Assembly (NCBI GenBank): GCA_947629445.1
Contig: CANRDU010000001.1
Coordinates: 68,642 to 132,641, forward strand
Direction: 5' to 3'
DNA length: 64,000 nt
DNA from: an uncultured Bacilli bacterium
Lineage (GTDB): Bacteria > Bacillota_I > Bacilli_A > RF39 > UBA660
In this document: positions 1-62,489 of the stretch, one piece after another
Layout: every line of letters begins with the position of its first letter
Numbering within the stretch: position 1 is the stretch's first letter
The notes under the pieces: model-generated
What the model was told of the DNA's origin: nothing
The model's database searches: none
Seen by the model: only the letters and a program-made list of their open reading frames with translations
Made by a program: the position numbers and the translations under genes

Positions 1-1245
1 AGCTAAGATAATATCCACATTATCAGGAATCTCCCAGCCCGCAATGGTTCTAGGATTATCTACAATACCATTAATAAAAACTTGCATATTAGGCGTTAGT
101 TTATCAAACTCATCTAATAGTAGAACGCATCTTTCATGACTTTCACGGCATCTATTAGACATTTCCAGCAATTTCGTATACCATTCTGGTTCTGCCGTTG
201 CTGTTCTTCCTTTTTCATTGTGCTCAACAGTCCTATTTCCATCCTGAGTAATTATTTTATCGCCTGGAATAATACTGGTCTTACCAGTAAATGCATCCGG
301 AGTAAACGTCGACATATTAAATGATAAACAGTTTGGATTAATGCTTTTCGCAATTTGCGTTTTACCGATTCCCGGATGTCCAACTAGATAAGGTATTCTA
401 GTTCCCCCTATCAAAATTCTTCTTATTTTCTGTTCAAGTGTAAGTTTTTCTTTTTTATCACCAAAAGGATTTGTAAATGCTTTCTTTTTTTCTTGTTTCT
501 TTTGTGGTTGTACCCCCAATTCTTTCATAAACTCATCGCTTGCTAGAAAACTTGCTAATGCTGATTGACTATACGAACAATGGAAAGCATCCACTAAGAA
601 TAATCTATTTTCACAAATAGCAATCCCACTTTTTTTATCCACTATCCATGTAAGTGGTGCGACTTCTCCTACAAAAGTCGCTTCAGGATTAAAACTATCG
701 TCAAAAGAACCATCACTTTTTCGAGTCATAAAGACATATTCTCTCCAATTCACTTCGTCTTGAAATACTCGTAGTTGTGTTTTGGTCCCATCCTCAGCCA
801 AAAATATTGTTATTTTGCGACCACTTTCCTCTAGTTTTCCCATTTTGGAAGCCTGATTGACTAATTCTAGTGTATCCTTAGAAACGAATCTTCCATTGGT
901 TAAGCCTCTACCATATTGAATGGTAAGGGTATCTTCATCCTCAGAAATAACTTGGCTGTTATCCCTAATTTCTGCAAAATTAATAATTGGTAAAACTTCA
1001 CATTTTCCCTCCGACCATTCGATTCTATATGAGGTTAAACGGTCCACGTAAACAATACCTTTTTTGTCAAAAGAATCATAATCCTGCAAAATTATAAAAG
1101 GGAATGTTCCTAGTCCATTCGTCTTTACCCAGAACCAATTTGCTAGTATATTCATGCTAAAAACTGGTTTAGTTAAAACACTGTTTACAATTTTATGAAT
1201 ATTCTCATCCTCTAGTAATCTCTTGCTTAAAATACTAAACGCCAT
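1..1245 (-). CDS. AAA+ ATPase (MoxR/AAA_5-like) with uncharacterised N-terminal domain; 3'-truncated by window edge
   Basis: Not in the ORF track. Hand translation from ATG 1245 (SD GGAGG at 1251-1256) is open to base 1. Walker A GHPGIGKT at 358-381; Walker B VLLLDEFDK near 100-130. Confidence 0.85.
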   Translation of the reverse strand, partial: MAFSILSKRLLEDENIHKIVNSVLTKPVFSMNILANWFWVKTNGLGTFPFIILQDYDSFDKKGIVYVDRLTSYRIEWSEGKCEVLPIINFAEIRDNSQVISEDEDTLTIQYGRGLTNGRFVSKDTLELVNQASKMGKLEESGRKITIFLAEDGTKTQLRVFQDEVNWREYVFMTRKSDGSFDDSFNPEATFVGEVAPLTWIVDKKSGIAICENRLFLVDAFHCSYSQSALASFLASDEFMKELGVQPQKKQEKKKAFTNPFGDKKEKLTLEQKIRRILIGGTRIPYLVGHPGIGKTQIAKSINPNCLSFNMSTFTPDAFTGKTSIIPGDKIITQDGNRTVEHNEKGRTATAEPEWYTKLLEMSNRCRESHERCVLLLDEFDKLTPNMQVFINGIVDNPRTIAGWEIPDNVDIILA

Positions 1246-42400: not shown

Positions 42401-45050
42401 TCTGCCACTTTACAGAATCAGGATCTAAGAATAGTTCTACAATATCATCAAAATTTTCCAGTACATACCATTCCATAGAATCGGTAACTCCTGTAACACG
42501 ATTTTCTAAACTATTCGCATAAATATTGTGTGGAATATTTCCTGGTTGTAAATCAATAAAGAATAAATTATCGACATCATTTCGATCATTTACGAGAAGA
42601 TGAACAACAATATCATCATTGACATTTAATTCATCAATACGATCACTTAAATCAACGACAGTTTCCCCATCCGTTACTTGTGTCCATTCAGTAGTATCAC
42701 TAACTCTTTGATGTTCTGCATCATATTCATAGTTTAAAGTATATTCAAATCTTATCTTCTCTTCAGCAGCTTTATTTAGAAGCATCAACTTATTCGCATT
42801 TTCTCCATCGAAAGAGAAAGTAGCGGTATCATTATTCGCCTTTATGCCAAGCAGATATTTGGCAATATCGCGAATGGCAGATGCTTGAAAATAATCTTCA
42901 TCTTTCACATTTTTTAATTCATTTAAAGTATCATTTAACAGTTTCGCATAAGCTGGACTATTATGAACAATTTTAGCATCAATTAACTTGAGTAAATCAT
43001 ACATTGGAAGAGGATATTCTTTAAAAATAACGAGAATTCTCTTAGCTAATTCAAAATAGTCATCATCTTCTTTGGAAGGATCATTCAAATAAGTTTGAAT
43101 TAATTGATACCAAGCATCTAAGTTGTATGGCTGTTCTTTAATGGCTTGCTCATAAGCTGCAATTTTATCTTTGAAAGAAGTTCTCACTTCCCCTAGTAAA
43201 TTATACAAAAATGCTTTTTTATAGTTATCCCAATCATCTACAGCTCTTTGAGCTAAAAGGAGATAGGCTCCATTATTGCTGTCGGTCCAAGTACCTTCTC
43301 TTCGCGTTCCCCAGTTGAGCATCATACGTTCTCCCTTATAGGAAGCAGCCCAACCAGCAGCAGCATTACCAATTTGCCATTCTCTTCTTTTCTCGCCCTT
43401 CCACTCTGTTTCTTTAGAAACGAAGTAGGCTGCATGTCCTGGTTGTGATACTAACGTAGAAGGTCTTCCATAAGACATTTCGATATTTGATCCTGTTCCG
43501 GCTAGAGAACCACAAACACCATCTTCTTCCCATATGGTCCAAAGACGAAGTGGCGAACCTGGTTTTGTCTCTAAATCAAAATATCCTAGTCCATACTTCT
43601 CATTACAATTAACGCCTCTTTTATAACCCGGACTATTATTCTTATTCTGGTTAACCCCTTCTGCACAATGGGTAGAATTTTCTTTATAATATTCTGAATC
43701 TTCATAATTCCATCCACTAGCATAATAAATGTAAGTATATGGATTGGTATATCCATCTTTATTGTATGGGGTTTTTCCAGCTTTTGTCATCTGTGTATAC
43801 CAATTCAACCATGCAACTTCTATATCACTAATACGATTATTAACAACCCAACGCATCTCTTCTATTTCTAGATTGGTAAAAATATCTTTCTCAAAATAGG
43901 TTGAAACATCATCATAAGTATACCCAGTTGTAAGTAAATTTTTAATAACTTCATATCTATCTAAAGCATCTGATGGTGTTCTAACAGGTTCTACTGGTTT
44001 TTCTGCTGTCTGCCAGAAATTAACATCGGTACTATAAGTAAGAGAAATAGCCATCATCATCTTCTCATAGACATCACCATACTCTTCATCATTCAAATCT
44101 TCCTTATGAGCTTCATATAACTCTTTAAATACATTGAGAGCTTGAATGTAATTATCCCCTTCAGGTGTTCCCCCTAATAGATATTTCTCCATCAACTCTC
44201 CATCGTTAAATAGCCAATAGATAAAGTCATACGTAGATTTATCTTGATTGACATAAGCTTGTAACATACTATAGCCAATACGACTAACCAATGTTCTTTG
44301 TAATAATTTTAATTTTAATTCCTTGTTAGCTAAAATTTCTGCATTGGTATATGGTAATAATTCTTGGTCGTATGTTTCTACCGTTTTAATCCACTCCACA
44401 TTAGGGTTTTCCTTAGGTGAATAAATCTTACTATCATATAGCATAGCATCCACCCAAACAGAGTGATCATAAGAATTGTCTCCATTACTATCCGCATATA
44501 ATTTTAACCACTTATAATCTTCCAAAGCAACCGTGATTTTAGCAGCATCATTATTTCCTTTTAAAGCTTGCGTAGATTCTAATTGTACCCAATCTTTATC
44601 GGTAATAGATTCATAAGTATCATTTTTCGCACCATAGACAAAGAATTTAACCCCAGTACCATTAGAACCTTTACTAGAATCGACTCCCGCATAGGTAGTA
44701 AACGTATCATAGTTGAAACTTCTTAAATCATAAACAAGGGTAGAAGAAGCATGGGCGAAAATAGCGTTCATAGAATAGATTTTCTCACCATTGATTAATA
44801 TAGAAATCATCCCACCAGCATCATTCTTATTAATCTTCACATCTCCATATCCCGTTTTAGCATAATGCCATTTCAGATTGGATAAAAAAACATATCCTTC
44901 CTCACTAGTATTCTTATTGGTTTCTTTTGCATCTGATCCAATCTCTGCTGCAACAAGCGGAATTGGGACACTAACAACTAGTAAAGAAACGCTTAAAAAA
45001 CTTAATGTTATTTTTCGAATAATTTCTTTTATATGTCTTAATTTTTTCAT
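39471..45050 (-). CDS. Large membrane-anchored surface protein, paralogue of 8793-13709
   Basis: Same order of NPCBM, Cys/His core, F5/8C, Ig-like repeats, N/S/T linker and TM, with one extra repeat unit. Confidence 0.85.
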   Translation of the reverse strand: MKKLRHIKEIIRKITLSFLSVSLLVVSVPIPLVAAEIGSDAKETNKNTSEEGYVFLSNLKWHYAKTGYGDVKINKNDAGGMISILINGEKIYSMNAIFAHASSTLVYDLRSFNYDTFTTYAGVDSSKGSNGTGVKFFVYGAKNDTYESITDKDWVQLESTQALKGNNDAAKITVALEDYKWLKLYADSNGDNSYDHSVWVDAMLYDSKIYSPKENPNVEWIKTVETYDQELLPYTNAEILANKELKLKLLQRTLVSRIGYSMLQAYVNQDKSTYDFIYWLFNDGELMEKYLLGGTPEGDNYIQALNVFKELYEAHKEDLNDEEYGDVYEKMMMAISLTYSTDVNFWQTAEKPVEPVRTPSDALDRYEVIKNLLTTGYTYDDVSTYFEKDIFTNLEIEEMRWVVNNRISDIEVAWLNWYTQMTKAGKTPYNKDGYTNPYTYIYYASGWNYEDSEYYKENSTHCAEGVNQNKNNSPGYKRGVNCNEKYGLGYFDLETKPGSPLRLWTIWEEDGVCGSLAGTGSNIEMSYGRPSTLVSQPGHAAYFVSKETEWKGEKRREWQIGNAAAGWAASYKGERMMLNWGTRREGTWTDSNNGAYLLLAQRAVDDWDNYKKAFLYNLLGEVRTSFKDKIAAYEQAIKEQPYNLDAWYQLIQTYLNDPSKEDDDYFELAKRILVIFKEYPLPMYDLLKLIDAKIVHNSPAYAKLLNDTLNELKNVKDEDYFQASAIRDIAKYLLGIKANNDTATFSFDGENANKLMLLNKAAEEKIRFEYTLNYEYDAEHQRVSDTTEWTQVTDGETVVDLSDRIDELNVNDDIVVHLLVNDRNDVDNLFFIDLQPGNIPHNIYANSLENRVTGVTDSMEWYVLENFDDIVELFLDPDSVKWQKFKDAEPTVHDDKQTMVLVRDGYTAQRFPSEFVFLTFEPDEHNEETIYVPTSRLSVETSSDANETESKEKAIDGNAYSFWLSKKSNTEKPWIIVSTNRSIPLSKIDYVPRQDFNETGRITKAKIEISIDGKKWTTIADELSWANDDSTKSYTLTTPMNAKYVRIQALESVSGYASAAMINLYQTSVQDTIPVEDLTISYIKDGYTYNGSEHKPVLTVKDDETELIENTNYSVSYSNNISAGEATIELTGLGKYDGTIQKTFTIAKAEKPHNTPNAKMMVDATKEKLSDVELPEGWSWKNGDTPLVSGETITATAIYHDYDNYENVELEITVTKARGYHPVITIQDNKEFLEFEFTGEEVKTLEEIKKMITITDEEDGTIDINDSTKVQVSSNINWQVEGTYQITIHVTDSDQNEVEYTLNVILVDKTTDSIELTEENFEIVIEDDNLFYTGDELSIPVIVRDKEHQNHELTQGIDYDIEFSELVNAGKHTVTITGKNIYQGTLTGSYTIQKATQPKEMVSLEMHVSHDTTRLEQINLPNEWQWKDESIELQEGENKVVIFFIGDINHERYETEVTVIREAASIPEEDKGKSPVISIENKEYHFNIHDEEVTLEYFKPFIQITDEEDGIIDIEDEAVKIESDLKWQLGTWLITVTVTDSHGNISQANIVIIIEEEKKINISGLQIEVEEDNFVYNGEEYTPKVTVYEDGKVLEENVDYTVSYDNNKNAGTATITITGIGKYVGIQILNFTIEKVGPKDMPKSNIEVSSNTKIAKEVELPEGWHWEDENIPLVEGKNTLTAIYDGDNNHIAMEVVVVVTKLAEEKTKPEQTKPSTSDNTSNQNSNTNTHTNTKPSSNTSKKPSNSSTTSDSNTSLNTNSNTNSNSDMDTSSNTNSNPEMNTSSNSSSNESTSTNSNTHINSNTSSNSHDNSSESVNEQKSMEKKENPWFYLLGFATLGVGIITLVILLKNRLYANKKK

Positions 45051-45137: not shown

Positions 45138-46202
45138 TTATCTTGTATAACGGGATATATTCAGAATAATTCCCATACTACATAAAGTAATGAGTAAACT
45201 AGAGCCCCCGTAAGATAGAAATGGTAAGGTTACCCCTGTTACAGGAATCAAACCAACTACTACCATCAAATTCATAATTGTTTGAAAAGAAAAGCAAAAC
45301 ATAATACCAAACGCTAAATATTTGCCAAAAGTATCTTTCGTATGAAGAGCGATTTTAAAACCGTTTATAATAATCGTCAAAAATAAAGTGGCAACAAAAA
45401 GCATACCTACGAAACCAAATTCTTCACTAATAATCGAAAAAATAAAATCTGTTTGTGGTTCTGGTAAGTAGAAATGTTTCTGAATAGAATTGCCAAAGCC
45501 CATCCCGAATAAACCACCAGGCCCAATCGCATAAAGAGATTGAATGATTTGAAAACCACTTCCGAGTGGATCACTCCAAGGGTTTAAAAAAGATAAAATG
45601 CGGGCAAGCCGATATGGAGCAATTAAAATTAGGACAACAATTCCTCCTACTCCTACCACTGCCATTTTGATTAGAAAACGAATATCCATTCCCGCAACGA
45701 ATAAAATTCCTAAAATAGACATAACAAGAATGGTACCAGTACCAAAATCTGGTTGTAACATAATGAGTCCAAATAGTCCTAAAGTAAATAATAAAATGGG
45801 AAGATATTTTTTATGATGAGAAAGATATTTAGAAGTAAAAATAATAAGTCCTAACTTGGTAAACTCACTTGGCTGAATACCAAATGAACCTATTCCGAAC
45901 CAGCTTCTGCTTCCGTTTCGAACACTACCAATTCCGGGAATCAAAACAAGAACTAGTAGTAAAACACAAAGAAAAATAATCTTATTTGCCTGTTTATAAT
46001 AGTAGTAATAATCAATTTTACTAATGAAATACATAAGAATAATCCCGATAATAAAAAAGATAGATTGGTTTTTGACATATCGAAAAGGATCTTGATATTT
46101 ATATTCTGCCCAAATAGAAGAAGCGGAATATATCATGATTAGTCCAAATACGGCTAATAAAAGAATACTGATGACAAGCATCCACTCTACTTTTCTTTTC
46201 AT
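45138..46202 (-). CDS. spoVE: SEDS-family glycosyltransferase, SpoVE-like
   Basis: LIMIYSASSIWA, GSRSW, IQPSEF, QPDFGT, LPEPQTDFIFS and PFLSYGGSSL motifs; position after mraY as for Bacillus spoVE. Confidence 0.82.
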   Translation of the reverse strand: MKRKVEWMLVISILLLAVFGLIMIYSASSIWAEYKYQDPFRYVKNQSIFFIIGIILMYFISKIDYYYYYKQANKIIFLCVLLLVLVLIPGIGSVRNGSRSWFGIGSFGIQPSEFTKLGLIIFTSKYLSHHKKYLPILLFTLGLFGLIMLQPDFGTGTILVMSILGILFVAGMDIRFLIKMAVVGVGGIVVLILIAPYRLARILSFLNPWSDPLGSGFQIIQSLYAIGPGGLFGMGFGNSIQKHFYLPEPQTDFIFSIISEEFGFVGMLFVATLFLTIIINGFKIALHTKDTFGKYLAFGIMFCFSFQTIMNLMVVVGLIPVTGVTLPFLSYGGSSLLITLCSMGIILNISRYTR

Positions 46203-47188
46203 ATCCATACTCCAAATAAAAGCGAAATTAAACTAGCAAATAATCCTACTATCCAAAATAATTTTACTACTTCTCGCTCCGGTAAATATGCTTCAAAAGT
46301 ATGATGAATAGGAGTCATTGGGAAAATCCGTTTATGGGTAAATTTATAATAAACCCTCTGCATAATACAGGTTATTGTCTCTATCACAAAAACAATACCA
46401 ATCAAAATTAACAACAACTCATGCCTAGTTAGAATAGCAACCATTCCTAAAGTAGCTCCTAGGGATAAAGAACCCGTATCTCCCATAAACACTTTAGCGG
46501 GATTGGCATTAAAGAAAAGAAATCCAATCAGGGTTCCTACTAACGTAAATAAAAAGATAGAAATTTCTTGATAGCCTTCTAACCAACCCGTCATCGTCGT
46601 AATAATTCCTAATGTAAAAAAAGCAATCATAGATAATCCAGCCGCTAGTCCATCTAACCCATCTGTTAAATTTACAGCGTTACTACTAGAAACCAATACT
46701 AACAAAATAAATAAACCATATAACCACCCAATATTGATTTTCACTCCCAACGTATGAATCCAAATAAGTGGTTCATTACCTGCTAACATAAAAATCGTAA
46801 AGAGCGCAATCGCCAATAACAACTGTAAAAATAATTTCATATGCTCGGATAATCCACGATTATTCTTACGATAAATGATGAGATAATCATCAACTAAACC
46901 AATCACAGCATACCCAACAAAGGCAAATAAAATCATAAAAAGATTATAGGTCATTTGAATACGTTTAGAAAAAAGAAGTATACAAAGATAAAGAAGTGTT
47001 GGCAAAATGAAAATTAACCCACCCATAGTAGGAACATCTTTTTTATTTTGATGTTTTCTTTCTAAGTAAATGCTTAGGCTTTGATTACATTTTCTCTCAT
47101 GCAAAATGGGTAGTAAAATAAATCCTGCTAAAAGCGATAAAAATAATCCAGTCATCATGGAAATAATACATTTAATGAATAGTAGCAT
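46199..47188 (-). CDS. mraY: Phospho-N-acetylmuramoyl-pentapeptide transferase
   Basis: PTMGG, DDY, NAVNLTDGLDGL, VFMGDTGS and PIHH motifs. Confidence 0.95.
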   Translation of the reverse strand: MLLFIKCIISMMTGLFLSLLAGFILLPILHERKCNQSLSIYLERKHQNKKDVPTMGGLIFILPTLLYLCILLFSKRIQMTYNLFMILFAFVGYAVIGLVDDYLIIYRKNNRGLSEHMKLFLQLLLAIALFTIFMLAGNEPLIWIHTLGVKINIGWLYGLFILLVLVSSSNAVNLTDGLDGLAAGLSMIAFFTLGIITTMTGWLEGYQEISIFLFTLVGTLIGFLFFNANPAKVFMGDTGSLSLGATLGMVAILTRHELLLILIGIVFVIETITCIMQRVYYKFTHKRIFPMTPIHHTFEAYLPEREVVKLFWIVGLFASLISLLFGVWI

Positions 47189-47226
47189 GCTATCACCCAT
47201 TCAAATATATTCCACAAAAAAAAGAG

Positions 47227-48851: not shown

Positions 48852-49877
48852 TTATTTTTCATTAAGGTATAGACGAATCGTTTCTCCATCAGCAATTTTA
48901 ATACCGGCTTTAGGAGATTGATAAGTAACCGTACCTGTTCCCTCATATTCTACTTTAAAGGATTTTAAATTCTTCATAGCATCTTTTAGTTCCATACCTG
49001 TAACATCTGGTACTACACTATAAGTTTTATCCAAATAGACAAACTCTTTTTCAATTTCTCCTTCTTGTTCTTCAATTCCTAAAATGGGAATCGCAGAAAG
49101 TAGAATATTTTTAGCAATGGGAGCAGCTACTGTTCCTCCATACTGCGTAACTCCCTTAGCATTATCAACTGCTACATAAATAACAATCTTAGGATCATTA
49201 GCCGGTAAAAAACCAATGAAAGACGTGATATAGTTTCCCGTTAAATAACTTCCATTTTCCGCTTTTTGTGCGGTACCGGTCTTTCCCCCTACTCGATAAT
49301 TGGGAATATATGCATTATGTCCTGTACCTCTAGCAACAACACTTTCTAGAGCATATCGTACCTTACTACTAGTTTCTTCACTAATCACTTTGCGTACAAT
49401 TTTTTCTTCGGTTTGTAAAATAACTTGATTCGTTTCTGGATCGTTAATACTTTTGACAATATAAGGTTTATATAAAATACCTCCATTGATAGCGGCACTT
49501 ACCGCCACTACTTGTTGAATAGCAGTTACTGCAACTCCCTGTCCAAAAGCAGTCGTAGCCGTTTCCAAATCTCCAATTTGATCAACATCAAATAAGATAC
49601 CACTAGATTCTCCAGAAAGTTCTATGCCTGTTTTTTCCCCAAATCCAAAATTGCGAATGTAGGAAAATAATTTTTCTTTTCCAAGTCGTAGTCCTAAGTT
49701 GACAAAGCCAGTATTGCAGGAATTTTCTACCACCTCTAAATAAGTCTCTGTTCCATGTCCCCCATGTTTCCAACAGTGCAAAGTAGCACCTTCCACCATA
49801 ATCGCTCCAGAATCATGAAAACTTTCATTCTCTAAATCCACTGTTTTTTCCTCTAAAGATGCTGCTAACGTAATAAT
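48852..49877 (-). CDS. spoVD: spoVD 3' segment (transpeptidase remainder plus PASTA), separated from the 5' segment by the intervening element
   Basis: In frame from attR: IITLAASLEEK..CWKHGGHG..SCN..AFGQG..GGKTGTAQK..PASTA, closely resembling Bacillus SpoVD. Confidence 0.88.
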   Translation of the reverse strand: MITLAASLEEKTVDLENESFHDSGAIMVEGATLHCWKHGGHGTETYLEVVENSCNTGFVNLGLRLGKEKLFSYIRNFGFGEKTGIELSGESSGILFDVDQIGDLETATTAFGQGVAVTAIQQVVAVSAAINGGILYKPYIVKSINDPETNQVILQTEEKIVRKVISEETSSKVRYALESVVARGTGHNAYIPNYRVGGKTGTAQKAENGSYLTGNYITSFIGFLPANDPKIVIYVAVDNAKGVTQYGGTVAAPIAKNILLSAIPILGIEEQEGEIEKEFVYLDKTYSVVPDVTGMELKDAMKNLKSFKVEYEGTGTVTYQSPKAGIKIADGETIRLYLNEK

Positions 49878-49913
49878 TTTAAACGTTGCTCCCTTTTTTA
49901 TACAAAAAAAAGA

Positions 49914-50213
49914 TTAAATGTAATCTTTTTTCAGCCAATAACGCAATAGTTTTTCCTGTTCTTCCTTACTGATACATTGATAATAAAGCATAGATAAGAT
50001 ATCTTTACATTCTTCCGATAAATTTTGATCTTTCAAATTTTTATCTTCTTCTATATAAAATTCCTTTGTAGAATCTGCTGCTAATGTTATCAATTGACTC
50101 ACCAATTCATCAGAAATTTTTTCCTGAAAAGATTCCTCACAATAAGCTAAAACCGTTAAGAGTTCTTTTGCTAAATCACTATCAAATTCTTCTTCCAATT
50201 CTATCTTCTCCAC
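49914..50213 (-). CDS. Small acidic hypothetical protein (element cargo)
   Basis: 99 aa; overlaps the end of the upstream cargo gene. Confidence 0.65.
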   Translation of the reverse strand: MEKIELEEEFDSDLAKELLTVLAYCEESFQEKISDELVSQLITLAADSTKEFYIEEDKNLKDQNLSEECKDILSMLYYQCISKEEQEKLLRYWLKKDYI

Positions 50214-51096
50214 CTTCTAAAAAAATATTTTGTAATTTATCAAACGCCGATTTTATTTTTTGAAAAGTTCGAGTTATCGCTAACTCACCAATTTCTTCTT
50301 TTCCGAAAACTTTACCTAAGTTTCTCTTTTGCATCCGGGCAAACTTTTCATATTTTTCTTGAGAAAAAATTTCTCTACCAAAATAAAATTTTTCGGAAGG
50401 ATCTGGCATAGCTAAAACAGGAATGTTTCTATCTCCTACCATCTTACGGACAAAATTTACCCGAGAACGAGGAACACAAATACACTGAATAGATTCTAAG
50501 GGCATGCCACCATATATTCCAATTTCAGAAATATCAGAAGCAATATTCACTACTTTTTGCTTTCGGATTTCTTCTTCTGAGGTTGCAATCATCACCCCAA
50601 AAGAGGATTTCGCCTTTCCTTCCTTGGAAAGTATCATGGAGTAATTTTCAGAAATATCATACACATCTGAAAAACTAACAAATGGTCTTTTGCCTTGAAT
50701 GCGGCTCCAAGATTCTCCCGTTTCAACGGCAATCCCCATCTCTTGTAAAGTGTTCACACTATTTAACCCATATTGTAAAATTCCAGGAAGTGCATTTGCC
50801 CTAGTTCCATGGAAAAATTTCACTTGATGATCTACAAAAAATTGAAAGGTTTCTGGTTCTGATAATAATAATCTTGCCATTCCTAGACGTCTTTCAATTT
50901 CAATATAAGGGCTATTCCTTCTTTCCATATTACTAGAAACACTATATTGTTGCCATATTCCTCGATATAATATTTCTTTTAATTTTTCAAGAGTTTCTTC
51001 ATCTTGCGCTAATCTCAAAAAGGCATTACAAAGCATCTCATATTTAGGATAATCTGCATTCAACTGTTCTAAAGAATAACTAGAATACTGCATCAC
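50182..51096 (-). CDS. Hypothetical protein with ADP-ribosyltransferase-like motifs (element cargo)
   Basis: FFHGT..LPGILQYGL, FVSFS and SEI motifs in ART-like order. Confidence 0.55.
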   Translation of the reverse strand: MMQYSSYSLEQLNADYPKYEMLCNAFLRLAQDEETLEKLKEILYRGIWQQYSVSSNMERRNSPYIEIERRLGMARLLLSEPETFQFFVDHQVKFFHGTRANALPGILQYGLNSVNTLQEMGIAVETGESWSRIQGKRPFVSFSDVYDISENYSMILSKEGKAKSSFGVMIATSEEEIRKQKVVNIASDISEIGIYGGMPLESIQCICVPRSRVNFVRKMVGDRNIPVLAMPDPSEKFYFGREIFSQEKYEKFARMQKRNLGKVFGKEEIGELAITRTFQKIKSAFDKLQNIFLEGGEDRIGRRI

Positions 51097-51120
51097 ATCA
51101 CCTATTTTCTATTAATGATA

Positions 51121-51150
51121 ATTATACGCTAGGAAAGAAATATTTGTCAA
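51121..51150 (-). promoter_or_regulatory. sigmaA promoter of the cargo operon
   Basis: TTGACA-18-TATAAT. Confidence 0.7.
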
Positions 51151-51168
51151 CAAAAGGTCTTTTCACTC

Positions 51169-52893
51169 TCAAGATAAAAGATAGACATTATAAAGAAAGC
51201 GGTTAGAAAGATGATTCTTTCTTTTTCTTTCTACTGTATCACAAACTTGATTTTCTAGATAGAGGATAGCATCTCCATTTAAAGTATCGAGATTGATATG
51301 TTCTTCGTTTGTTGATTTATCTTCTCCCAATAAATTAACAAAGATATCTAATTTTAAATAATAGCGATTTTCTTTTATTTTTGATACGATGATACGCTTG
51401 ATAAAAGTTCGAATAAAGTCTTCTAGTAAATTTTTTTCTAGTTCTTCTTCAATTATAGAGGTAATTTCTTTTCTTTTGGAAGAATGATTGGAAAACTTTT
51501 GGATTCTATTTTGTAATTCTTGTTTTTCTTTATAGAGATTTTCCTTTTCCTTTTCATATTCCTCCCACTGACTTTTTAATGATTCTCTTTGAATATCACC
51601 ATGAAAGGCAAAATCTAGAAGCATCGCTTTTTTTTCTTCAATAATTTGGATTTTATGTTCTAACAAAGTCAACGTTTTTTCATATTCTTCTATATCTATA
51701 TTTTCATATCGTTTTAATAAATCATTCATCAATTTCTCCTTCGAAGGAAGAATTTTATTCATAATAAGAGAAGAAATATGATACAAATCTATTTCAGCAA
51801 TAATGGGAGAAATACAAGCAGATTTACGATACTGTAAATATAAACCGCAACTCCAAGTAGGACGATTTTTTCTTTTACTATTATAAGACCTTTGAAAATT
51901 AGTAGCATGTTCCCTACAATAAATTTTGGAACTAAAAGGATACTTTACTCCCCCTGACCAGTGATGATTATTCCAATACCGCTTTGTACGTTTTTTTAAT
52001 ACCTCATTGGCTTTTTCCCAAAGTTCTTCCGATAAAATAGCAGGAACACTGCCATCTTCACACTTGTATAAAATTTGTTCATTTCTATCATTTTTCTTTC
52101 TTCTTTTCGTTCGATAATCCATAACTTCATAAGTCTTTGCGCGATAATAACCCTTATACTTAGGATTTTCTATCATTCGTTTTAAAGAATCTTTATCATA
52201 TAAATTTCCTTTCCTATTATGATACCCCATTTCGAATAATTTTTTGGAAAGTTTTTGAAAGCCATATTGACCACTGGCATATAACGTAAACAAAGTTCTT
52301 ATAAAAGCAGCTTCACTCTCCTCTACAATTAATTTGCATTTTTCTTTTCTATAACCTGTAATATTAGAGGATCCTAGTACATGACCTTTTAAAATGGCCT
52401 CTCGATGACCAAATTTAATTCGTGTTGATAATTTTCTAGATTCTTCTTGGGCTAAATTAAACATAATATTTAAAATCAATTCGGAATTAGAATCAAATGT
52501 ATGTAAATTTTGATTTTCAAAATACACCCCTACTCCACAATGTTTTAAAATTCTAATATAATGAATACTATCCTCTAAGTCACGAGCAAAGCGAGATACT
52601 TCTTTGGTAATAATTAAATCAAATTTATTAGTTTGAGCATCATGAATCATTTTTTGAAAACTAGTTCTTCCCTTTACTCTAACGCCTGTTTTTCCCTCCT
52701 CTACATATCCTCCCATGAAAGTCCAATTCGGTTTAGAACGGATATAATTTTCATAATATTCAGACTGGTTAGATAGCGAGTTTTTCTGTGCATCGGATTC
52801 CGTCGATACCCGTCCGTAGTAGCATACTCGAAGAGGAATATTATAAATTTTTTCTCCTGCCAAAAGAGATTGTACAATTTCATCATAACGCAT
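51169..52893 (-). CDS. Large serine recombinase (SpoIVCA/CisA-like architecture)
   Basis: YGRVST catalytic Ser, KEVSRFARD, AQEESRKLS, recombinase domain, zinc ribbon (CREH..C..C) and coiled coil. Confidence 0.95.
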   Translation of the reverse strand: MRYDEIVQSLLAGEKIYNIPLRVCYYGRVSTESDAQKNSLSNQSEYYENYIRSKPNWTFMGGYVEEGKTGVRVKGRTSFQKMIHDAQTNKFDLIITKEVSRFARDLEDSIHYIRILKHCGVGVYFENQNLHTFDSNSELILNIMFNLAQEESRKLSTRIKFGHREAILKGHVLGSSNITGYRKEKCKLIVEESEAAFIRTLFTLYASGQYGFQKLSKKLFEMGYHNRKGNLYDKDSLKRMIENPKYKGYYRAKTYEVMDYRTKRRKKNDRNEQILYKCEDGSVPAILSEELWEKANEVLKKRTKRYWNNHHWSGGVKYPFSSKIYCREHATNFQRSYNSKRKNRPTWSCGLYLQYRKSACISPIIAEIDLYHISSLIMNKILPSKEKLMNDLLKRYENIDIEEYEKTLTLLEHKIQIIEEKKAMLLDFAFHGDIQRESLKSQWEEYEKEKENLYKEKQELQNRIQKFSNHSSKRKEITSIIEEELEKNLLEDFIRTFIKRIIVSKIKENRYYLKLDIFVNLLGEDKSTNEEHINLDTLNGDAILYLENQVCDTVERKRKNHLSNRFLYNVYLLS

Positions 52894-52897
52894 AGTT

Positions 52898-53053
52898 TTA
52901 TACCCTCTGCAAAGAGGATTTTATTTTCTGAAGTAACTCATCCTCTACCCTAAAAAAAGTTTTTTCATCAATAACGTTTTTCTGAAATAAATGACTATTC
53001 ATGATTCTTTGAATTTGCAATTCTAATATTTTATTTTTAATCACTTTTATCAC
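52898..53053 (-). CDS. Small (48-51 aa) ORF upstream of the recombinase; candidate recombination directionality factor
   Basis: Hand translation (VIK)VIKNKILELQIQRIMNSHLFQKNVIDEKTFFRVEDELLQKIKSSLQRV; GTG starts at 53053 or 53044 (SD GGTGA); stop 4 nt before the recombinase ATG. Confidence 0.6.
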   Translation of the reverse strand: MIKVIKNKILELQIQRIMNSHLFQKNVIDEKTFFRVEDELLQKIKSSLQRV

Positions 53054-53059
53054 CCATAA

Positions 53060-53089
53060 ATCCTATGCTTTATTCTAAAATAGATGACT
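53060..53089 (-). promoter_or_regulatory. Putative sigmaE-like promoter inside attL
   Basis: GTCATCT...CATAGGAT, with 16 nt between TCAT and CATA. Confidence 0.45.
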
Positions 53090-53107
53090 AAAAAAGGGCT
53101 CTACATT

Positions 53108-53989
53108 TTTAAAAGTAGACCCTGGTTCATACGTCATCCATATCGGCAAATTACGATTAATCTCTTCACTTGTATAATCTTGATAGTTAGAAGGAGAAAA
53201 GTTAGGTCGAGAGGCAATCGCTAATATAGCCCCACTATTCGGATCCATAGCAAGCGCAAAAGCTTGATCAGCTTGATACATAGACATCACATTATCCAGT
53301 TCTCTTTCTACTGCTTCTTGTAGTTCAAAATCAATCGTTAACGTGATATTCATGCCATCTTGAGGCTGTTCATAAATTTGACTTAACTGTAATTTATTAC
53401 CCTTAGCATCACTAAAATATTTAATAGCACCGTAACTACCTGTTAGATATTCATCATAAATTAATTCTAAACCACTTAACCCTTGATTATCGATTCCCAC
53501 AAAACCTAATGTTTGAGCTAGATAGGTATCATATGGATAATTTCTTTTCGATTCTTTTACTAAATAAACGCCAGATAGTTTTAAAGCCGATATTCTATCA
53601 GCAATCTCGTTGGATAATCTTCTTCCTTCTGGGTGGACTCTTTCAATAGAAGTTTTTTTCGTAACATGCTTTAACATCTCTTCATAAGAGACAGATAAAA
53701 TTTCTGATAATGTTTTGGCTGTATATTCTTTATCTTCTATTTGATTCGGAATTAAAACAAGAGAAGTAGTCGTAATATTACCAGCAAGAACAATACCATT
53801 TCTATCATAAATTTTTCCTCTATTCGCTTCCAAAGGAAGATTTCTACTCCAAAGACTAGTAGCATAATGATTGAGTTTTTCATAACTAATTACTTGAATA
53901 TAAAATACTTTGCCAATAATCACAACAAATAAAAAAAGAATTACCACTAATACAAACTTCATACGAGCATTCATTTTCTTAACAAACAT
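53108..53989 (-). CDS. spoVD: spoVD 5' segment (TM, PBP dimerisation domain, up to EPGSTFK); reads 10 codons into the element to a stop at 53075
   Basis: RGKIYDRNG, GLSGLE and RNLPIWMTYEPGSTFK motifs. Confidence 0.9.
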
Positions 53990-54037
53990 GGTATCACCAC
54001 CACATTATATGAAAAAAAAAGAACGTTTTTTCGTTCT

Positions 54038-56020
54038 TTATCTTCTGGTGGATATATCTTCGTCCATCATATCTGCAACATATTTTAACTTTTTCTTGAT
54101 TTTTTCAGATTCCGTCAAATGTTCTATTTTATCCCTCTCAAAAATTGGTTTTTCACGTCTATGCCTGCGATACGAACGTGTTTTTACTACGACGATAGCT
54201 AGTCCTAAATTTTTAGCGCTTTCAATATCTTTCTCACTAAAAGCATCATAAGTATAAATACCAAACATTTTTGGCATTACTAAACGATTATTTACTTCAT
54301 CTTCTCGTCTAGTATTTCTTTGCGCTATCACGATTTCATTATAATCATCACTATCATCCAACAATTGCTTTGGACTCATTAAAAAATTTCGATAATTACT
54401 AGCAACAAGATTATATACACGGTCATAACTAGAATAAGAATCCAATGGGAAAATATGTAAAACCTGTGAAACCGGAAGATCAAAATAAATGAAAGTATAA
54501 TATTCCTTAGGAGAATAAAATAATTTAAATTTAGAAGGTCCATCAATAGAATAAGAAGCAGCATCTACATCACACCAAAGATCATCTTTTTGTAAAACTT
54601 CATCTTTACGATTGGTTATGCATTTAATTAAAGCATAATAAAGTTCTTCCTTTACAACGTAAATGGGAACCCCATATTTTAAAGAAGATGCTTCATCATA
54701 AAAGGGAAGAATACTTTGTTCATTCAATAGAGAATCTCCCAATCTTTGATAACAGTGATTTCTTGCCCTTCTCATATCATCATAGAATTCTTCTTGAATA
54801 GGATATTTTTTCAAAGCCTCATGTAGTCTCATTTTTTCAGAATGAGGTAGAGAATCCAAAGAAAGTATTCTCCTATAAAGTTCTAATTTTTGAGGACTTA
54901 GAATTTCCTCTACTCTACTTGCATAATTACATAATTCTTGCATATCTAGAAATAAGTTATGAGGAACTTCTTCAAAATGATAATCTACTATCATATTCGC
55001 AATCCATATACTTGATTCTCTTTGTAAGTAATGTAATAATGGAACTTTGAAATTTTTTTGAGAAACTAATTCTTGTATCTCTTCTAATAAAATATCTTCA
55101 TTCGCTGAATCGCCAAAGAAAGAAAAATATTTAGAAAGATTTTGCTCATACCACATCTGGATATCAGAGTGAATAATATCGTCATATAATCTTTCCATCT
55201 GCCTTAAAAGTCCTGTTCCTTCATGGAAACTAGCCATCCTACTTTCATAATATTTTTTTCGAAGTGTTTCCATATAGGAAACATCATGATTCAGTTTCAT
55301 TTTTTCTACTAATAAACGATAAGATTTGACACTATCCATGGTAACCATTTTTTGTAAAAAAGCAGATTCTTCTAATAAATGCTTAGGAATGTGAATAGAT
55401 CTTTCCACTAAACTATCTAGGTTTTCATATGAAAAATTATTAATAGTAATCAATTTAGAGAGTGCCTGCTCAGAAACAACTTTAGGGCCATAAAGTACAA
55501 AAGGCAATAGTTCTTTTCTATTCAACTGAAAGTTATCAATAAGTCCACAGATTTCTTCTTCTTCAAATGCTCTCATCAATTCTATTAATCTTTTTCTTCC
55601 AAATTGTTCTTCCACATATCTCAAAAATAAAGTAGCTTCTTCTAGTGAAAACGAAGAAATACTTTCAAAATTATTGTGTGGTCCAAATTTATAGACTAAT
55701 TTTAGAAAAGACTTCTTTTTTAATAGAGGTATTAAAGCTGGACAATGGTTACTTAAAATACTTCTAACCTTTTCTCCCGCATGTAGGGATTTTTCCAAAT
55801 ACAGGATTCCTTCTTCATCTAATACACTCAGTATAGTATCAATATCTTCATAGGCGACAAAGTGGGAAAATTGACTAGTCGTTGAACGTTGAATAAAAAC
55901 TCTCTTCAAGGTACTATCCTGTATCATCATTTTAAATTCCTCTACATTTTTTTCAAGGGTTTGAAAAAGAAGGTCTAATAAATTAGAATAAGCATCATTA
56001 TTACACGCAGTATTTGTCAT
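54038..56020 (-). CDS. Hypothetical protein
   Basis: Long ORF; SD GAGGGG before MTNT; terminator at about 54012-54040. Confidence 0.78.
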   Translation of the reverse strand: MTNTACNNDAYSNLLDLLFQTLEKNVEEFKMMIQDSTLKRVFIQRSTTSQFSHFVAYEDIDTILSVLDEEGILYLEKSLHAGEKVRSILSNHCPALIPLLKKKSFLKLVYKFGPHNNFESISSFSLEEATLFLRYVEEQFGRKRLIELMRAFEEEEICGLIDNFQLNRKELLPFVLYGPKVVSEQALSKLITINNFSYENLDSLVERSIHIPKHLLEESAFLQKMVTMDSVKSYRLLVEKMKLNHDVSYMETLRKKYYESRMASFHEGTGLLRQMERLYDDIIHSDIQMWYEQNLSKYFSFFGDSANEDILLEEIQELVSQKNFKVPLLHYLQRESSIWIANMIVDYHFEEVPHNLFLDMQELCNYASRVEEILSPQKLELYRRILSLDSLPHSEKMRLHEALKKYPIQEEFYDDMRRARNHCYQRLGDSLLNEQSILPFYDEASSLKYGVPIYVVKEELYYALIKCITNRKDEVLQKDDLWCDVDAASYSIDGPSKFKLFYSPKEYYTFIYFDLPVSQVLHIFPLDSYSSYDRVYNLVASNYRNFLMSPKQLLDDSDDYNEIVIAQRNTRREDEVNNRLVMPKMFGIYTYDAFSEKDIESAKNLGLAIVVVKTRSYRRHRREKPIFERDKIEHLTESEKIKKKLKYVADMMDEDISTRR

Positions 56021-59968: not shown

Positions 59969-62170
59969 TTATGCTTCCTTTTCTGGTTCTTCTTCTTTCT
60001 TACTATCATCTGTATCATCTGTACTTTGTAAGGTTAACTTGAGGATATCTTTCGTATCCAGCTTTGTCCCTGGCTTGATACTTTGATTGGTTACAAAGCC
60101 ATGTCCTTCTATTGAATAAGGAATATTAGCAAGAGTGGCATACGTAACAACATCATTCTTAGACCAACCAACTAAATCCTCTAGGGTAACCGTATTTCCA
60201 TTGGTTACTAAAAACACTTTATCTTTCGTAATGATACTAGCACCTTTCTTAGGGTACTGATTCACAACCGTATGTCCATCGCCAATGGTAATAACTTCTA
60301 CTCCTTCTTTGCTAAGAATACTTTTTGCTCGATCCACTTCCATGTTGATATAGGAATCTAAAGAATAACTTTTAACATCCATCTCATCAACGGACTCTGC
60401 AAATATATTCTTATATTTAGCAATATTACGAAGTACTTCTTTTACTGGTGTTGCTAAAATGGTACTGGTGGAAGTAGATGGTTTTTTCATCGCTGCATAA
60501 ACAATAATTTGAGGATCATCTTTTGGAAACATTCCCGCAAAAGAAATTAGATAATTACTATCTCCCTGCAAGTAATGTCCGTCTTCCCATATTTGAGCAG
60601 TACCAGTCTTTCCAATAATATCAAATCCTTCAATTCCATAATACCGTCCTACGGCAAATGAACTATTTACCGCCTTATACATTAAGTCTCGCATTTGTAA
60701 AACGCTTTCCTTTTGTACTAATTGTCCGGTTTTAATGATTTTACTTTCTATTTCTGTACCGGTTTCCTTATTTACAATTTTCTTAATGATATGTGGTTTT
60801 ACCATCACTCCGTCATTCGCAATAATAGATAAAGCTTGAAGAATTTGGATAGCCGTAACAGAGAATCCCTGTCCATAACTAACAGATAACCAATCTAGTT
60901 CAATATTTTCATTGAAATCTACGTTTCCTGTTGCCTCTTTACTAAGTTCACTTACTTCCGTACTTAACTCAATTCCCGTTTCAGAACCAAAGCCAAATTT
61001 CTTTAAGCATCCCTTTAATTCTGACGGTGAGAGATACTCTTTGGCAACATGCATAGCTCCTACATTACTAGAGTATTGGTATCCAGTATCATAACTAATC
61101 TTTCCCCATCCATACCGATTCCAATCATATACTCGATTTGGTCCTACTTTATAAGAACCAGATTGATATTCCTTCGTTCCATCATAATTTCCCGTATCAA
61201 TAGCACATAAATACGTAAATGTTTTCATAACAGAACCTGGTTCATATGGTTCAGAAATTAAATGATTTTTATAGTCCATATTTTGAGGAAGAGAATTAGG
61301 ATTAAAAGTAGGACTAGTTGCACTTCCTAAAATTTCTCCTGTTTTAGCATCCATGATGGCAATTAACATCCACTCTGGTTTGTATTGATCTGAAGTTTCT
61401 TTCACTGCTGCTTCTAGAAAACGTTGAATAGTAGAATCAAGAGTAAGATAAATATCACTTCCATCAATAGCTTCCACTCTAGTTTCTGGAGTATCTGGAA
61501 TTTGATATCCATATAAATCTTTTTGATAAGTTAGACTTCCATTGATACCTTTTAACAAATCTTCCTTGGCTAACTCTACTCCCATTTCCCCTTCAATAGC
61601 ATCAGAATCTCTTCTTTTCGCATACCCTATAATATAGGAAGCGAAAGTTCCATTTGGATAAAAGCGTTGAGTAGACTCAATAAAATCTAAGCCAGGGAGT
61701 TCTAAATTTTCGATTTCTAACTTGGTTAATTCGGTAATTTTAGATCCATATACTCCAAATTCTACTTGATAAGCACCCTCAACTTGTAATCTAGCAAGGA
61801 GATATTCATAAGGAGCATCTAATACTTTAGATAACGCTTGTGCCGTAGCTTCCTTATCCACGACGTGCTGCGGATTATCGATATCCGTAGTTCTAGAAGG
61901 ATCCAGATAGGCAATTAAGGTATAGGAAGACACATTGAGCGCTAAAGCTCTACCATCACGGTCATAGATAGTTCCTCTTTTCGCCAATAATTCTTTATCT
62001 ACTGTAATTCTATCTTGAGAAAATTGTTTTAGATTTACACCATCTATCTCCTTAGCCAATGATAAATACGTAAATCTTCCCATTAAAAGCAAAATAAAAA
62101 AGAGAAAAATTAAAAGTACATATTTTGGCTCACGCCAACTTTTTACGACTGTATGTTTTTCTCTTTTCAT
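59969..62170 (-). CDS. pbpB: Class B penicillin-binding protein (PBP2B/FtsI-like, two PASTA domains)
   Basis: RGTIYDRDG, EPGSVMK (SxxK), SSN and KTGTAQ motifs; follows ftsL. Confidence 0.9.
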   Translation of the reverse strand: MKREKHTVVKSWREPKYVLLIFLFFILLLMGRFTYLSLAKEIDGVNLKQFSQDRITVDKELLAKRGTIYDRDGRALALNVSSYTLIAYLDPSRTTDIDNPQHVVDKEATAQALSKVLDAPYEYLLARLQVEGAYQVEFGVYGSKITELTKLEIENLELPGLDFIESTQRFYPNGTFASYIIGYAKRRDSDAIEGEMGVELAKEDLLKGINGSLTYQKDLYGYQIPDTPETRVEAIDGSDIYLTLDSTIQRFLEAAVKETSDQYKPEWMLIAIMDAKTGEILGSATSPTFNPNSLPQNMDYKNHLISEPYEPGSVMKTFTYLCAIDTGNYDGTKEYQSGSYKVGPNRVYDWNRYGWGKISYDTGYQYSSNVGAMHVAKEYLSPSELKGCLKKFGFGSETGIELSTEVSELSKEATGNVDFNENIELDWLSVSYGQGFSVTAIQILQALSIIANDGVMVKPHIIKKIVNKETGTEIESKIIKTGQLVQKESVLQMRDLMYKAVNSSFAVGRYYGIEGFDIIGKTGTAQIWEDGHYLQGDSNYLISFAGMFPKDDPQIIVYAAMKKPSTSTSTILATPVKEVLRNIAKYKNIFAESVDEMDVKSYSLDSYINMEVDRAKSILSKEGVEVITIGDGHTVVNQYPKKGASIITKDKVFLVTNGNTVTLEDLVGWSKNDVVTYATLANIPYSIEGHGFVTNQSIKPGTKLDTKDILKLTLQSTDDTDDSKKEEEPEKEA

Positions 62171-62198
62171 ATCATCACCATAATTATTATAACATATT

Positions 62199-62489
62199 TT
62201 ATTTGTTGATAACAATGATGTTTTCGTTATTATAAGCAAGACCTAATTCTTTAATAACACTACTAACATTTTCATAAGAAGTTAATTCATTTACCTGCAT
62301 CGTTAAGGATTCATTTTTCTTTTCTTGAACCTCTATATTGTAATTTACTTTTTCAATATTCATTTTTAAATTACTAATTTGAGCTCCAAAAAAGATTTTA
62401 CTAGCAAATAAGGCGATAAAAGCAATAACTCCCAATGTATAAATCATTTTCTCTTTTCTGGTAATTCTTGCTTTTCTTGCTTTTTTCAT
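62199..62489 (-). CDS. ftsL: Cell division protein FtsL-like
   Basis: Basic N-terminus, TM helix and coiled coil; between rsmH and pbpB. Confidence 0.75.
   Translation of the reverse strand: MKKARKARITRKEKMIYTLGVIAFIALFASKIFFGAQISNLKMNIEKVNYNIEVQEKKNESLTMQVNELTSYENVSSVIKELGLAYNNENIIVINK

Follow-up and report, generated by a model that had tools for sequence, protein, structure and literature searches.

The stretch of DNA examined here, hereafter the window, comprises 64,000 nucleotides of contig CANRDU010000001.1 (positions 68,642 to 132,641, forward strand) in assembly GCA_947629445.1, a metagenome-assembled genome (MAG) of 1.32 Mb in 49 contigs that is 79% complete and belongs to an uncultured Bacilli bacterium (GTDB lineage Bacteria; Bacillota_I; Bacilli_A; RF39; UBA660). 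On its minus strand, the class-B penicillin-binding protein (PBP) gene spoVD is cut after the lysine codon of the SxxK catalytic motif by a 3,230-bp insert encoding a large serine recombinase (LSR). The 5' part of the gene ends in CCA GGG TCT ACT TTT AAA (E-P-G-S-T-F-K) and then runs into aat gta gag ccc tttttt, which starts a tail of 10 foreign codons and a stop on the truncated product. The 3' part, which follows aaaaaagggagcaacgTTTAAA, begins with I-I-T-L-A-A-S. It lacks a usable start codon where the insert joins it, the first in-frame start being a GTG 12 codons downstream, and it carries no signal peptide, membrane anchor or nucleophile. Joining the parts in silico at a shared heptamer gives an open frame of 635 amino acids (EPGSTFK-IITLAASLEEK). 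Pfam assigns PBP_dimer and Transpeptidase positions 2-47 to the 5' part, and Transpeptidase positions 46-298 and PASTA to the 3' part, so that a single domain is cut in two. An earlier note on this DNA had described these junction sequences, the 3,230-bp spacing of the TTTAAAA repeat and the join of 294 + 341 = 635 residues, all of which are borne out by direct reading and translation.

The joined protein scores 709.2 bits on the NCBI equivalog model TIGR02214 (spoVD_pbp; cut-off 688) and has the architecture of a transmembrane (TM) segment, PBP_dimer, Transpeptidase and a single PASTA domain, with SxxK, SxN and KTG at residues 291, 347 and 493. By the equivalog model, the interrupted gene is spoVD, the name that the earlier note had also given it. 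It sits in the dcw cluster beside mraY and a spoVE-like gene of the SEDS family, and the second class-B PBP of the window, which resembles the division PBP, reaches 359 bits on the same model. In B. subtilis, spoVD, spoIVA and cwlJ are sigma-E genes of the mother cell (PMC517825); this precedent, together with a conserved sigma-E/K-like motif upstream of the gene, suggests that spoVD would be expressed in the mother cell and serve cortex synthesis here as well.

The same architecture recurs, at 99.5-100% identity, in six other independent assemblies (DRR848771, SRR29273035, ERZ27249635, ERZ27249643, ERZ27249148 and ERR10663766; other samples and pipelines, Logan and ENA), and the same junction is found in dozens of species. 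An assembly artefact is excluded by the six further assemblies, and the idea of a mis-assembled or chimeric contig, which the fragmented and incomplete state of the MAG might encourage, retains next to no probability. A second spoVD was found neither in the source MAG at its 79% completeness, where the other class-B PBPs are 27-29% identical, nor in relatives of 92-97% completeness that have the same split. The earlier note had allowed for a second intact spoVD beside decaying halves, or for an artefact of assembly, and neither came to light. Within the species, single-nucleotide polymorphisms (leaving aside noise at the end of contig L132, two synonymous and one non-synonymous in the 5' part and one in the 3' part, also non-synonymous) are too few to inform.

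It is conceivable that the two halves act as a split protein, with no rearrangement of the DNA, and several relatives indeed have an ATG just before the junction in the arm contributed by the element (M-V-G-T-F-K). However, no start codon precedes the junction in this window, and where the ATG does exist the nucleophilic serine is replaced by glycine, valine or alanine. Lacking a signal peptide and an anchor, the 3' product would moreover stay in the cytoplasm. We hence consider a split protein to be highly improbable.

Table 1. Features of the interrupted spoVD locus, its insert and related loci (window positions unless a contig is given; aa, amino acids; att, attachment site; ORF, open reading frame; SD, Shine-Dalgarno sequence)
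Feature	Positions	Strand	Description and evidence
Terminator-like hairpin	54018..54039	-	Ends the gene upstream of spoVD; sequence
spoVD upstream motif	53987..54011	-	CATATAAT, 6 nt, GGTGAT, ACC-ATG; first part like a mother-cell sigma-factor -10 box, second part the SD
spoVD 5' part	53108..53989	-	Codons 1-294: TM segment, PBP dimerisation domain, start of the transpeptidase through S-T-F-K; ORF list, Pfam
attL	53090..53130	-	Host arm CCAGGGTCTACT, core TTTAAAA (53107-53113), element arm ATGTAGAGCCCTTTTTT; junction at the same position in 42 related loci
Element-encoded tail	53075..53107	-	NVEPFFSHLF and stop (at 53075), ending the truncated 5' product; translation
Small-ORF upstream motif	53042..53067	-	CATAGGAT, 5 nt, GGTGA, 5 nt, GTG; promoter/SD architecture as that of spoVD
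Small ORF	52898..53053	-	48-51 aa; candidate recombination directionality factor; ends 4 nt before the LSR start codon; homologue upstream of the LSR in every element examined
LSR	51169..52893	-	574 aa; Resolvase, Recombinase, zinc ribbon, coiled-coil region; Pfam, PHROG integrase (2.7e-90)
Sigma-A-type promoter	51121..51150	-	TTGACA, 18 nt, TATAAT (perfect), ahead of the cargo genes; sequence
Cargo orf304	50182..51096	-	Predicted ADP-ribosyltransferase-like (DarT/Tpt1-like) fold, invariant FHGT; alignment, AF2, Foldseek
Cargo orf99	49914..50213	-	99 aa; overlaps orf304 at its end; the two always occur as a pair in relatives
attR	49860..49900	-	Element arm AAAAAAGGGAGCAACG, core TTTAAAA (49877-49883), host arm TTATTACGTTAGC; same junction in 32 related loci
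spoVD 3' part	48852..49877	-	Codons 295-635: rest of the transpeptidase (SxN, KTG) and one PASTA domain; Pfam, translation
mraY	46199-47200		dcw cluster
FtsW/SpoVE-type SEDS gene	45138-46208		436 bits on the spoVE model
Second class-B PBP gene	59969-62239		pbpB-like
Two very large ORFs	39471-45050; 8793-13709	-	1,859 and 1,638 aa; one immediately follows the ftsW/spoVE-like gene
spoIVA pieces	C23:5867..5427 (5' part); C23:~1209..103 (3' part)		Separated by an insert of ~4.3 kb

Attachment sites and gene content of the insert

The 7-bp core TTTAAAA (TTTTAAA on the plus strand) lies at 49877-49883 and again at 53107-53113. The rejoined junction predicted from the two copies, attB, reads GGGTCTACTTTTAAAATTATTACG and contains CCAGGGTCTACTTTTAAAATTATTACGTTAGC, and the predicted junction of the excised circle, attP, contains AAAAAAGGGAGCAACGTTTAAAAATGTAGAGCCCTTTTTT. 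By inspection, the two arms of the circle junction (AAAAAAGGGAGCAACGTTT and AAAAAAGGGCTCTACATTT) form an inverted repeat that is imperfect, agreeing at 15 of 19 positions. Reconstruction of attP from 20 related elements yields the consensus ATGGTAGGTACGTTy-AA-rAACGTAgcTACCAT, which has dyad symmetry solely when centered on the AA of the lysine codon (12.3 of 18 matches, versus 3-6 elsewhere); attB is weakly symmetric. This agrees with the inverted repeat about a central AA that the earlier note had pointed out, and the anatomy is the one expected when a serine integrase acts on a central dinucleotide that is not palindromic.

The arm on the side of the element encodes K-K-G-A-T-F-K in this window, extending the G-A-T-F-K that had been noted before, and the attP arm thus seems to mimic the SxxK codons of the host. 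In several relatives (loci L035, L036 and L037, on the attR side, and L048) the element arm at attR reads AAA ATG GTA GGT ACG TTC AAG, with the ATG in frame, so that a 3' piece starting there would begin M-V-G-T-F-K, with glycine in place of the nucleophilic serine. In one of these genomes (G017, locus L037), the element arm of attL, AAGGGACGCCCTTTTTTAGTCAT, resembles the arms of this window (53090-53113), and its attR arm and LSR are of the type found in G001 and G015, a mosaic that suggests recombination between elements or the remnant of a tandem.

The insert holds four ORFs, all co-oriented with spoVD, and its G+C content is 30.6%, versus 32% for the window. The LSR is intact and matches Resolvase (2e-25) and Recombinase (3.9e-18) in Pfam, as well as Zn_ribbon_recom at 20.9 bits, which is under the cut-off of 25.3 for that family. 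Its catalytic residue is Ser30 in YGRVST, the serine of RVST being invariant in the alignment, and residues 385-470 are heptad-rich by inspection. Matches in NCBIfam to XisF (67 bits), CcrB and CcrC are weak. The ratio of non-synonymous to synonymous divergence (dN/dS) of the LSR is ~0.15 in close pairs, and both the LSR and the small ORF ahead of it are maintained by purifying selection.

A small ORF of 36-68 codons stands directly 5' of the LSR in every element at every insertion site, including the element at the SxxK site of G014 and that of G034, and the encoded proteins share the motif ..IIxNxxLYxKxxI(D/S)ExTF..LL. The pairing is kept across LSR clades that are merely 36% identical, which is good evidence for a functional partnership. 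Given this conserved pairing, and the order attL, small gene, integrase, attR of known elements, we read the small ORF by analogy as a candidate recombination directionality factor (RDF). Searches of Pfam, PHROGs, PADLOC and 50,697 phage genomes returned no match to it.

The sole PHROG match in the insert is the integrase, and the search detected no other phage gene. The LSR clade is likewise absent from IMG/VR and from the 50,697 phage genomes, where the best match is 40% identical. A phage origin of the element was considered and rejected on two counts, the small ORF being without a match in those phage genomes and the clade without an LSR in IMG/VR, and the description of a minimal, non-prophage element given in the earlier note stands. 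A 7.1-kb record titled "Bacteriophage sp." (MT837325), with an LSR 40% identical to this one, was also considered as a captured circle, and was rejected for having neither spoVD pieces nor the small ORF.

The remaining two ORFs, orf304 and orf99, lie behind a promoter of their own. The orf304 family numbers seven homologues among 5.8 billion proteins, in all of which FHGT is invariant. An AF2 model of medium confidence (pLDDT 68) has DarT, DarTG or Tpt1/KptA proteins as its top 24 Foldseek matches, with a best E-value of 3e-4 and TM-scores of merely 0.35-0.49. The PADLOC match to DarT is weak (E-value 0.042 over 39 residues), orf304 has no match in Pfam or NCBIfam, and by sequence it falls outside the DarT/Tpt1 family model; the same two databases gave no family match for orf99, which may be a partner or antidote of orf304. 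Tentatively, and on the strength of the structural model, the pair is probably a toxin or defence pair of the ADP-ribosyltransferase type. In G015 it is located outside the element, just downstream of spoVD (L036:9963-11001), and in G017 (L037) at the opposite end of the element, a varied placement that points to a movable module, separate from the recombination unit.

Split spoVD genes in the host family and beyond

The joined SpoVD was searched against 60 relatives; the host family comprises 37 genomes, and the related records, titled "uncultured Bacilli", "Tenericutes" or "Mollicutes bacterium", "Firmicutes bacterium CAG:884" or "Candidatus Coprovivens", come from human, rabbit and ruminant guts. 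Within the family, spoVD is split in at least 19 genomes, intact in 14, missing from two (G022 and G026) and ambiguous in two more that have pieces at contig ends, which is the comparison of intact and split genes that the earlier note had in mind. Four fixed sites account for the breaks, and at each of them an LSR lies beside the 3' piece, co-oriented with spoVD. Site A, after K294 of SxxK, is that of this window and of G001, G002, G012, G014, G015 and G017. Site B follows N349 of SxN (G008, G014 and G027, with junctions checked; G003, G025 and G029, by match coordinates alone), site C lies at about residue 415 (between TAI and Q), some seven residues beyond the GQG motif (G006 and G007, with junctions checked; G016, G019 and G031, by match coordinates alone), and a fourth site lies inside GQG itself (G034). 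Going by these positions, the elements seem to aim at codons of invariant catalytic residues, which would be found in every potential host.

Each site has its own LSR clade, the LSRs of site A being 55-91% identical to one another and 35-41% identical to those of the site-B and site-C clades. In G014 and many other species, sites A and B are both occupied, and spoVD is then in three pieces (residues 1-294, 295 to ~349 and ~350-635; loci L038 of G014, L064, L051, L059, L075 and others), with tandem elements at the SxxK and SxN codons, each of which brings a small ORF and an LSR of a different clade. A scan of 185,579 species genomes with a profile of the site-A LSRs found ~50 species with an LSR at least 44% identical to that of this window, and in all but three short contigs, which show neither part of the gene, a piece of spoVD broken at residues 291-297 adjoins the LSR (the 5' part, or the 3' part where the 5' part is off the contig). 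In Clostridia, LSRs of 36-43% identity have no spoVD fragment within 6 kb, which places the boundary of the site-A clade at about 44% identity.

None of 58 5' parts of spoVD contains a stop or a frameshift, and 28 3' parts show no sign of decay; one flagged stop in each of L011 and L067 is presumed to be an artefact at the end of the alignment (a terminal stop or an extension across the junction). In comparisons with its nearest relatives, dN/dS of this spoVD is 0.04-0.09 in both halves, and split-split pairs have the same medians as intact-intact pairs. A stronger argument than dN/dS is that there is no decayed copy among dozens of independently colonized species.

Promoter motifs, the sporulation gene set and a second split gene

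The hairpin that ends the upstream gene implies that spoVD begins its own transcription unit. A T-run, CATAyAmT, ~5 nt, GGTGAT and the start codon are kept in front of spoVD in most of ~60 species, split and intact alike. CATACAaT is the -10 consensus of B. subtilis sigma-E, and cotJ belongs to the sigma-E regulon of that organism. A logo of the sigma-E promoter is given in PMC517825. When the source MAG was searched for CATAnnAT, 4-8 nt, an SD, 3-9 nt and a start codon, 11 sites were found, 10 of which stand ahead of an ORF of at least 35 codons, versus 0-2 in shuffled genomes. The ten ORFs are spoVD, the small ORF of the element, two CotJB genes, a CwlJ-like hydrolase, a LysM protein, a MurE-like ligase, a CBS protein, a ClpC-like ATPase and one that is spurious; apart from spoVD, the small ORF and the spurious one, they lie at C9:44640, C33:134, C26:7983, C48:1277, C2:109856, C42:4426 and C31:8351. 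The pattern thus marks a small, putative mother-cell regulon and could define the sigma-E/K promoter of this lineage. By sharing it with spoVD and with the CotJB and CwlJ-like genes, the small ORF looks to be under common control with genes of the mother cell, as is the case for sprB and CD1234 (PMC4191935, PMC5025042). No terminator was found in this window between the truncated spoVD and the small ORF and LSR, so that read-through from the spoVD promoter is also possible.

The host is probably able to sporulate, judging by its gene set. The source MAG has genes for Spo0A, a full-length SigK-like factor (294 bits), a SigE-like factor, SpoVS and SpoIVA, along with two CotJB proteins, one CwlJ/SleB-type (CwlJ-like) hydrolase and one LysM protein, and other class-A and class-B PBPs are available for growth. 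The spoIVA gene of this genome is itself split, on contig C23 (103-5867), after PRMVRTPW and before YDDEIPF, by an insert with an ABC-type ATPase and an LSR (C23:1258-2850) that is 24% identical to the one in spoVD. Pfam positions 1-129 of the SpoIVA ATPase domain are in one piece, and positions 122-237 are in the other, together with the C-terminal and middle domains. G009, G018, G024, G028, G029 and G030 have spoIVA broken in the same place, at residues 122-129, and in four of them spoVD is intact. That a single small genome should have LSR elements interrupting two mother-cell genes of the sigma-E class is hard to explain save by excision in the mother cell. Two more LSR genes (C27:6861-7252 and C40:381-638) stand beside ORFs with collagen-like GPT/GPV triplet repeats, possibly BclA-like exosporium proteins, and no split gene was recognized at either locus.

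These data bear on an alternative, plain insertional inactivation, in which a selfish insert sits in a dispensable spoVD, a gene already dead or on its way there as this small-genome lineage loses the ability to sporulate. Sporulation has been lost repeatedly in related orders of uncultured Bacilli, and a published study reports spoVD to be reduced or missing in RF39 (PMC10868615); G022 and G026 have no spoVD orthologue, and many of the insertions may be recent. Yet the absence of stops and frameshifts from all 58 5' parts, and of any sign of decay from the 28 3' parts, which are from different species, speaks against a dying gene, as do insertion sites fixed at invariant motif codons with junctions exactly in frame, purifying selection on the LSR and its small partner, and the intact state of the Spo0A, SigE, SigK, SpoVS, CotJB and CwlJ-like genes. 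A second mother-cell gene, spoIVA, is also split just as cleanly. We deem inactivation distinctly unlikely, and regard it as virtually certain that the insert is a site-specific LSR element in a spoVD that is still functional.

Proposed developmental excision and comparison with known elements

We suggest that the insert is a 3.23-kb integrative element driven by its LSR, which crosses over at the AA of the codon for the catalytic lysine in SxxK, and that it is excised as part of development. In the integrated state, no working SpoVD enzyme could be made from either part; vegetative growth would be unaffected, given the presence of separate division and elongation PBPs. On sporulation, the mother cell would switch on the small ORF and the LSR, from the sigma-E/K-like promoter of the small ORF, by read-through from spoVD, or by both. 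The LSR, redirected by the small protein, would then recombine attL with attR, releasing a 3.2-kb attP circle and leaving an intact 635-codon spoVD for cortex synthesis, and the forespore chromosome would retain the element and pass it on. That excision restores spoVD for sporulation we consider very probable; that it is confined to the mother cell is probable, and we judge developmental excision in the mother cell, with like assurance, to be the best reading overall.

A number of observations weigh against this proposal. The organism is uncultured, so that sporulation itself is merely predicted, and from a MAG that is 79% complete. All seven assemblies of the species are in the integrated state, and the excised form is unseen: one scan of JGI metagenome contigs with a degenerate attB/attP/attL/attR pattern gave three matches, all of them the intact spoVD of other species, so that the rejoined junction that the earlier note had hoped to find in metagenomes was not recovered there, and no full-length SpoVD more than 86% identical occurs among 5.8 billion proteins, the best, at 86%, being that of another species. 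This is what would be expected if excision were limited to short-lived mother cells, yet it provides no evidence for excision. Of 46 site-A elements, only 3 have the strict promoter motif ahead of the small ORF, and 20 have a relaxed form of it; elements of the G001 type have CATACGAT in that place. A universal mother-cell promoter before the small ORF was accordingly rejected. The -35 region is unconserved, and the predicted transcript would begin at the SD. Nor does the small ORF resemble any directionality factor known to date or any phage protein. Known RDFs are notoriously diverse, and the missing match hence says little either way.

The divergence of LSRs and hosts is also decoupled (r = 0.21), with synonymous divergence (dS) of the LSR at 0.1-0.4 in pairs whose hosts have a spoVD dS of 1-2.4, that is, saturated at synonymous sites. 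It follows that the elements have spread horizontally in recent times, always to the same site, and that integration is active and site-specific. Many insertions may thus be recent, in which case between-species dN/dS mostly reflects the time before insertion. We had considered such dN/dS values as proof of selection on the split state, and the decoupling downgrades them to supporting evidence.

The same decoupling is compatible with an element that leaves and re-enters the chromosome during vegetative growth, whether as a switch at the level of the population or as no more than a mobile element, with sporulation completed by the cured subpopulation alone. It is clear that the elements pass from one species to another, sister species differ in having spoVD intact or split, and an LSR with its directionality factor can run both reactions. 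Against vegetative excision, however, seven of seven assemblies are integrated and no empty-site allele is found in public proteins. Spores derived solely from cured cells would purge the element fast, yet about half of the family has it. Furthermore, the motif ahead of the small ORF is also that of mother-cell genes, and in every characterized precedent excision is restricted to the mother cell (PMC4191935, PMC5025042, PMC5595907). We therefore think vegetative excision unlikely, and retain excision in the mother cell as the reading to be preferred.

A broader and rather doubtful possibility is that spoVD and spoIVA are dedicated landing pads for a diversified group of tiny, non-phage elements made of a small ORF and an LSR, which would exit by way of the doomed mother cell and spread horizontally as circles freed at its lysis, each excision both restoring the host gene and producing a circle. 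Sporulation would in that case be the stage of transfer in a new life cycle of mobile elements, and more than a means of living with an insert. If true, this would explain the presence of near-identical LSRs in hosts with spoVD genes saturated at synonymous sites, and the presence of two elements in one gene would mean that all excisions are needed before the cortex can be synthesized.

Should excision be confirmed, spoVD and spoIVA would join sigK, spsM, spoVFB, spoVR, gerE and yabG, and this would be the first case in the small-genome uncultured Bacilli of the gut, which are often labelled Tenericutes or Mollicutes. With spoVD split in about half of the species of one family, these bacteria constitute a natural system for the study of co-evolution between elements and hosts. 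Split genes get scored as absent or as pseudogenes, which skews MAG-based predictions of sporulation in gut bacteria, and they may account for the reduction or absence of spoVD reported for RF39. These genomes also supply, in large number, natural combinations of an LSR with its small partner, attL and attR at known sites. Such combinations may be of use as tools, serine integrases with known directionality factors being scarce and wanted for genome engineering (PMC12286644). At 3.2 kb, the element is near the smallest of its kind, and its cargo, predicted to be DarT-like, is of interest for the biology of mobile elements.

In the literature, intervening elements have been described in the sporulation genes sigK, spsM, spoVFB, spoVR, spoIVFB, gerE, kamA and yabG; none was found for spoVD or spoIVA in the searchable full text, in agreement with the earlier note, which knew of no characterized spoVD example. 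The skin element of sigK (B. subtilis SpoIVCA with the RDF Skr; C. difficile skinCd with CD1231 and the RDF CD1234) is likewise an LSR element that interrupts a mother-cell sporulation gene with precise in-frame junctions, and its size and cargo differ between species, the recombinase alone being common to all (bioRxiv 10.1101/2022.02.25.481979; PMC6957869; PMC5025042). In contrast to skin, the target here is not a sigma factor, but a sigma-E cortex transpeptidase, and the element measures 3.2 kb instead of 14.6-48 kb and has no phage genes. In addition, several sites of one gene are used here by different LSR clades, with up to two elements possible per gene, and the system is known from sequence, from which we infer excision. 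The gin element of gerE in Bacillus cereus ATCC 10987 (GirC and the 42-residue GirX) resembles the present one in being non-phage, with a very small, motif-less RDF, an LSR and a mother-cell gene as its target, but it is 28.6 kb long, has three recombinases, another target and a 9-bp core, and its function has been demonstrated in vivo and in vitro (PMC5595907). SPbeta in spsM (SprA/SprB), vfbin in spoVFB, vrin in spoVR and the yabG element (cited in PMC12286644) share the layout attL, rdf, int, attR, which is also that of sprB-sprA, skr-spoIVCA and girX-girC (PMC6957869, PMC5595907), and the SPbeta rdf has a mother-cell promoter of its own (PMC4191935, PMC5499854, PMC6957869). Those elements are prophages or their remnants, unlike the present one, which is free of phage genes. 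In the heterocysts of Anabaena, the nifD, fdxN and hupL elements are excised in a terminally differentiated cell, several per cell, and XisF is a serine recombinase; phylum and developmental programme differ, and the link to the element described here is the weak XisF match of its LSR. The spoVD element thus belongs to the known class of intervening elements of sporulation genes, within which it is distinctive in its target, in its minimal size, in the multiple catalytic-codon sites used, and in its high frequency in an uncultured gut lineage.

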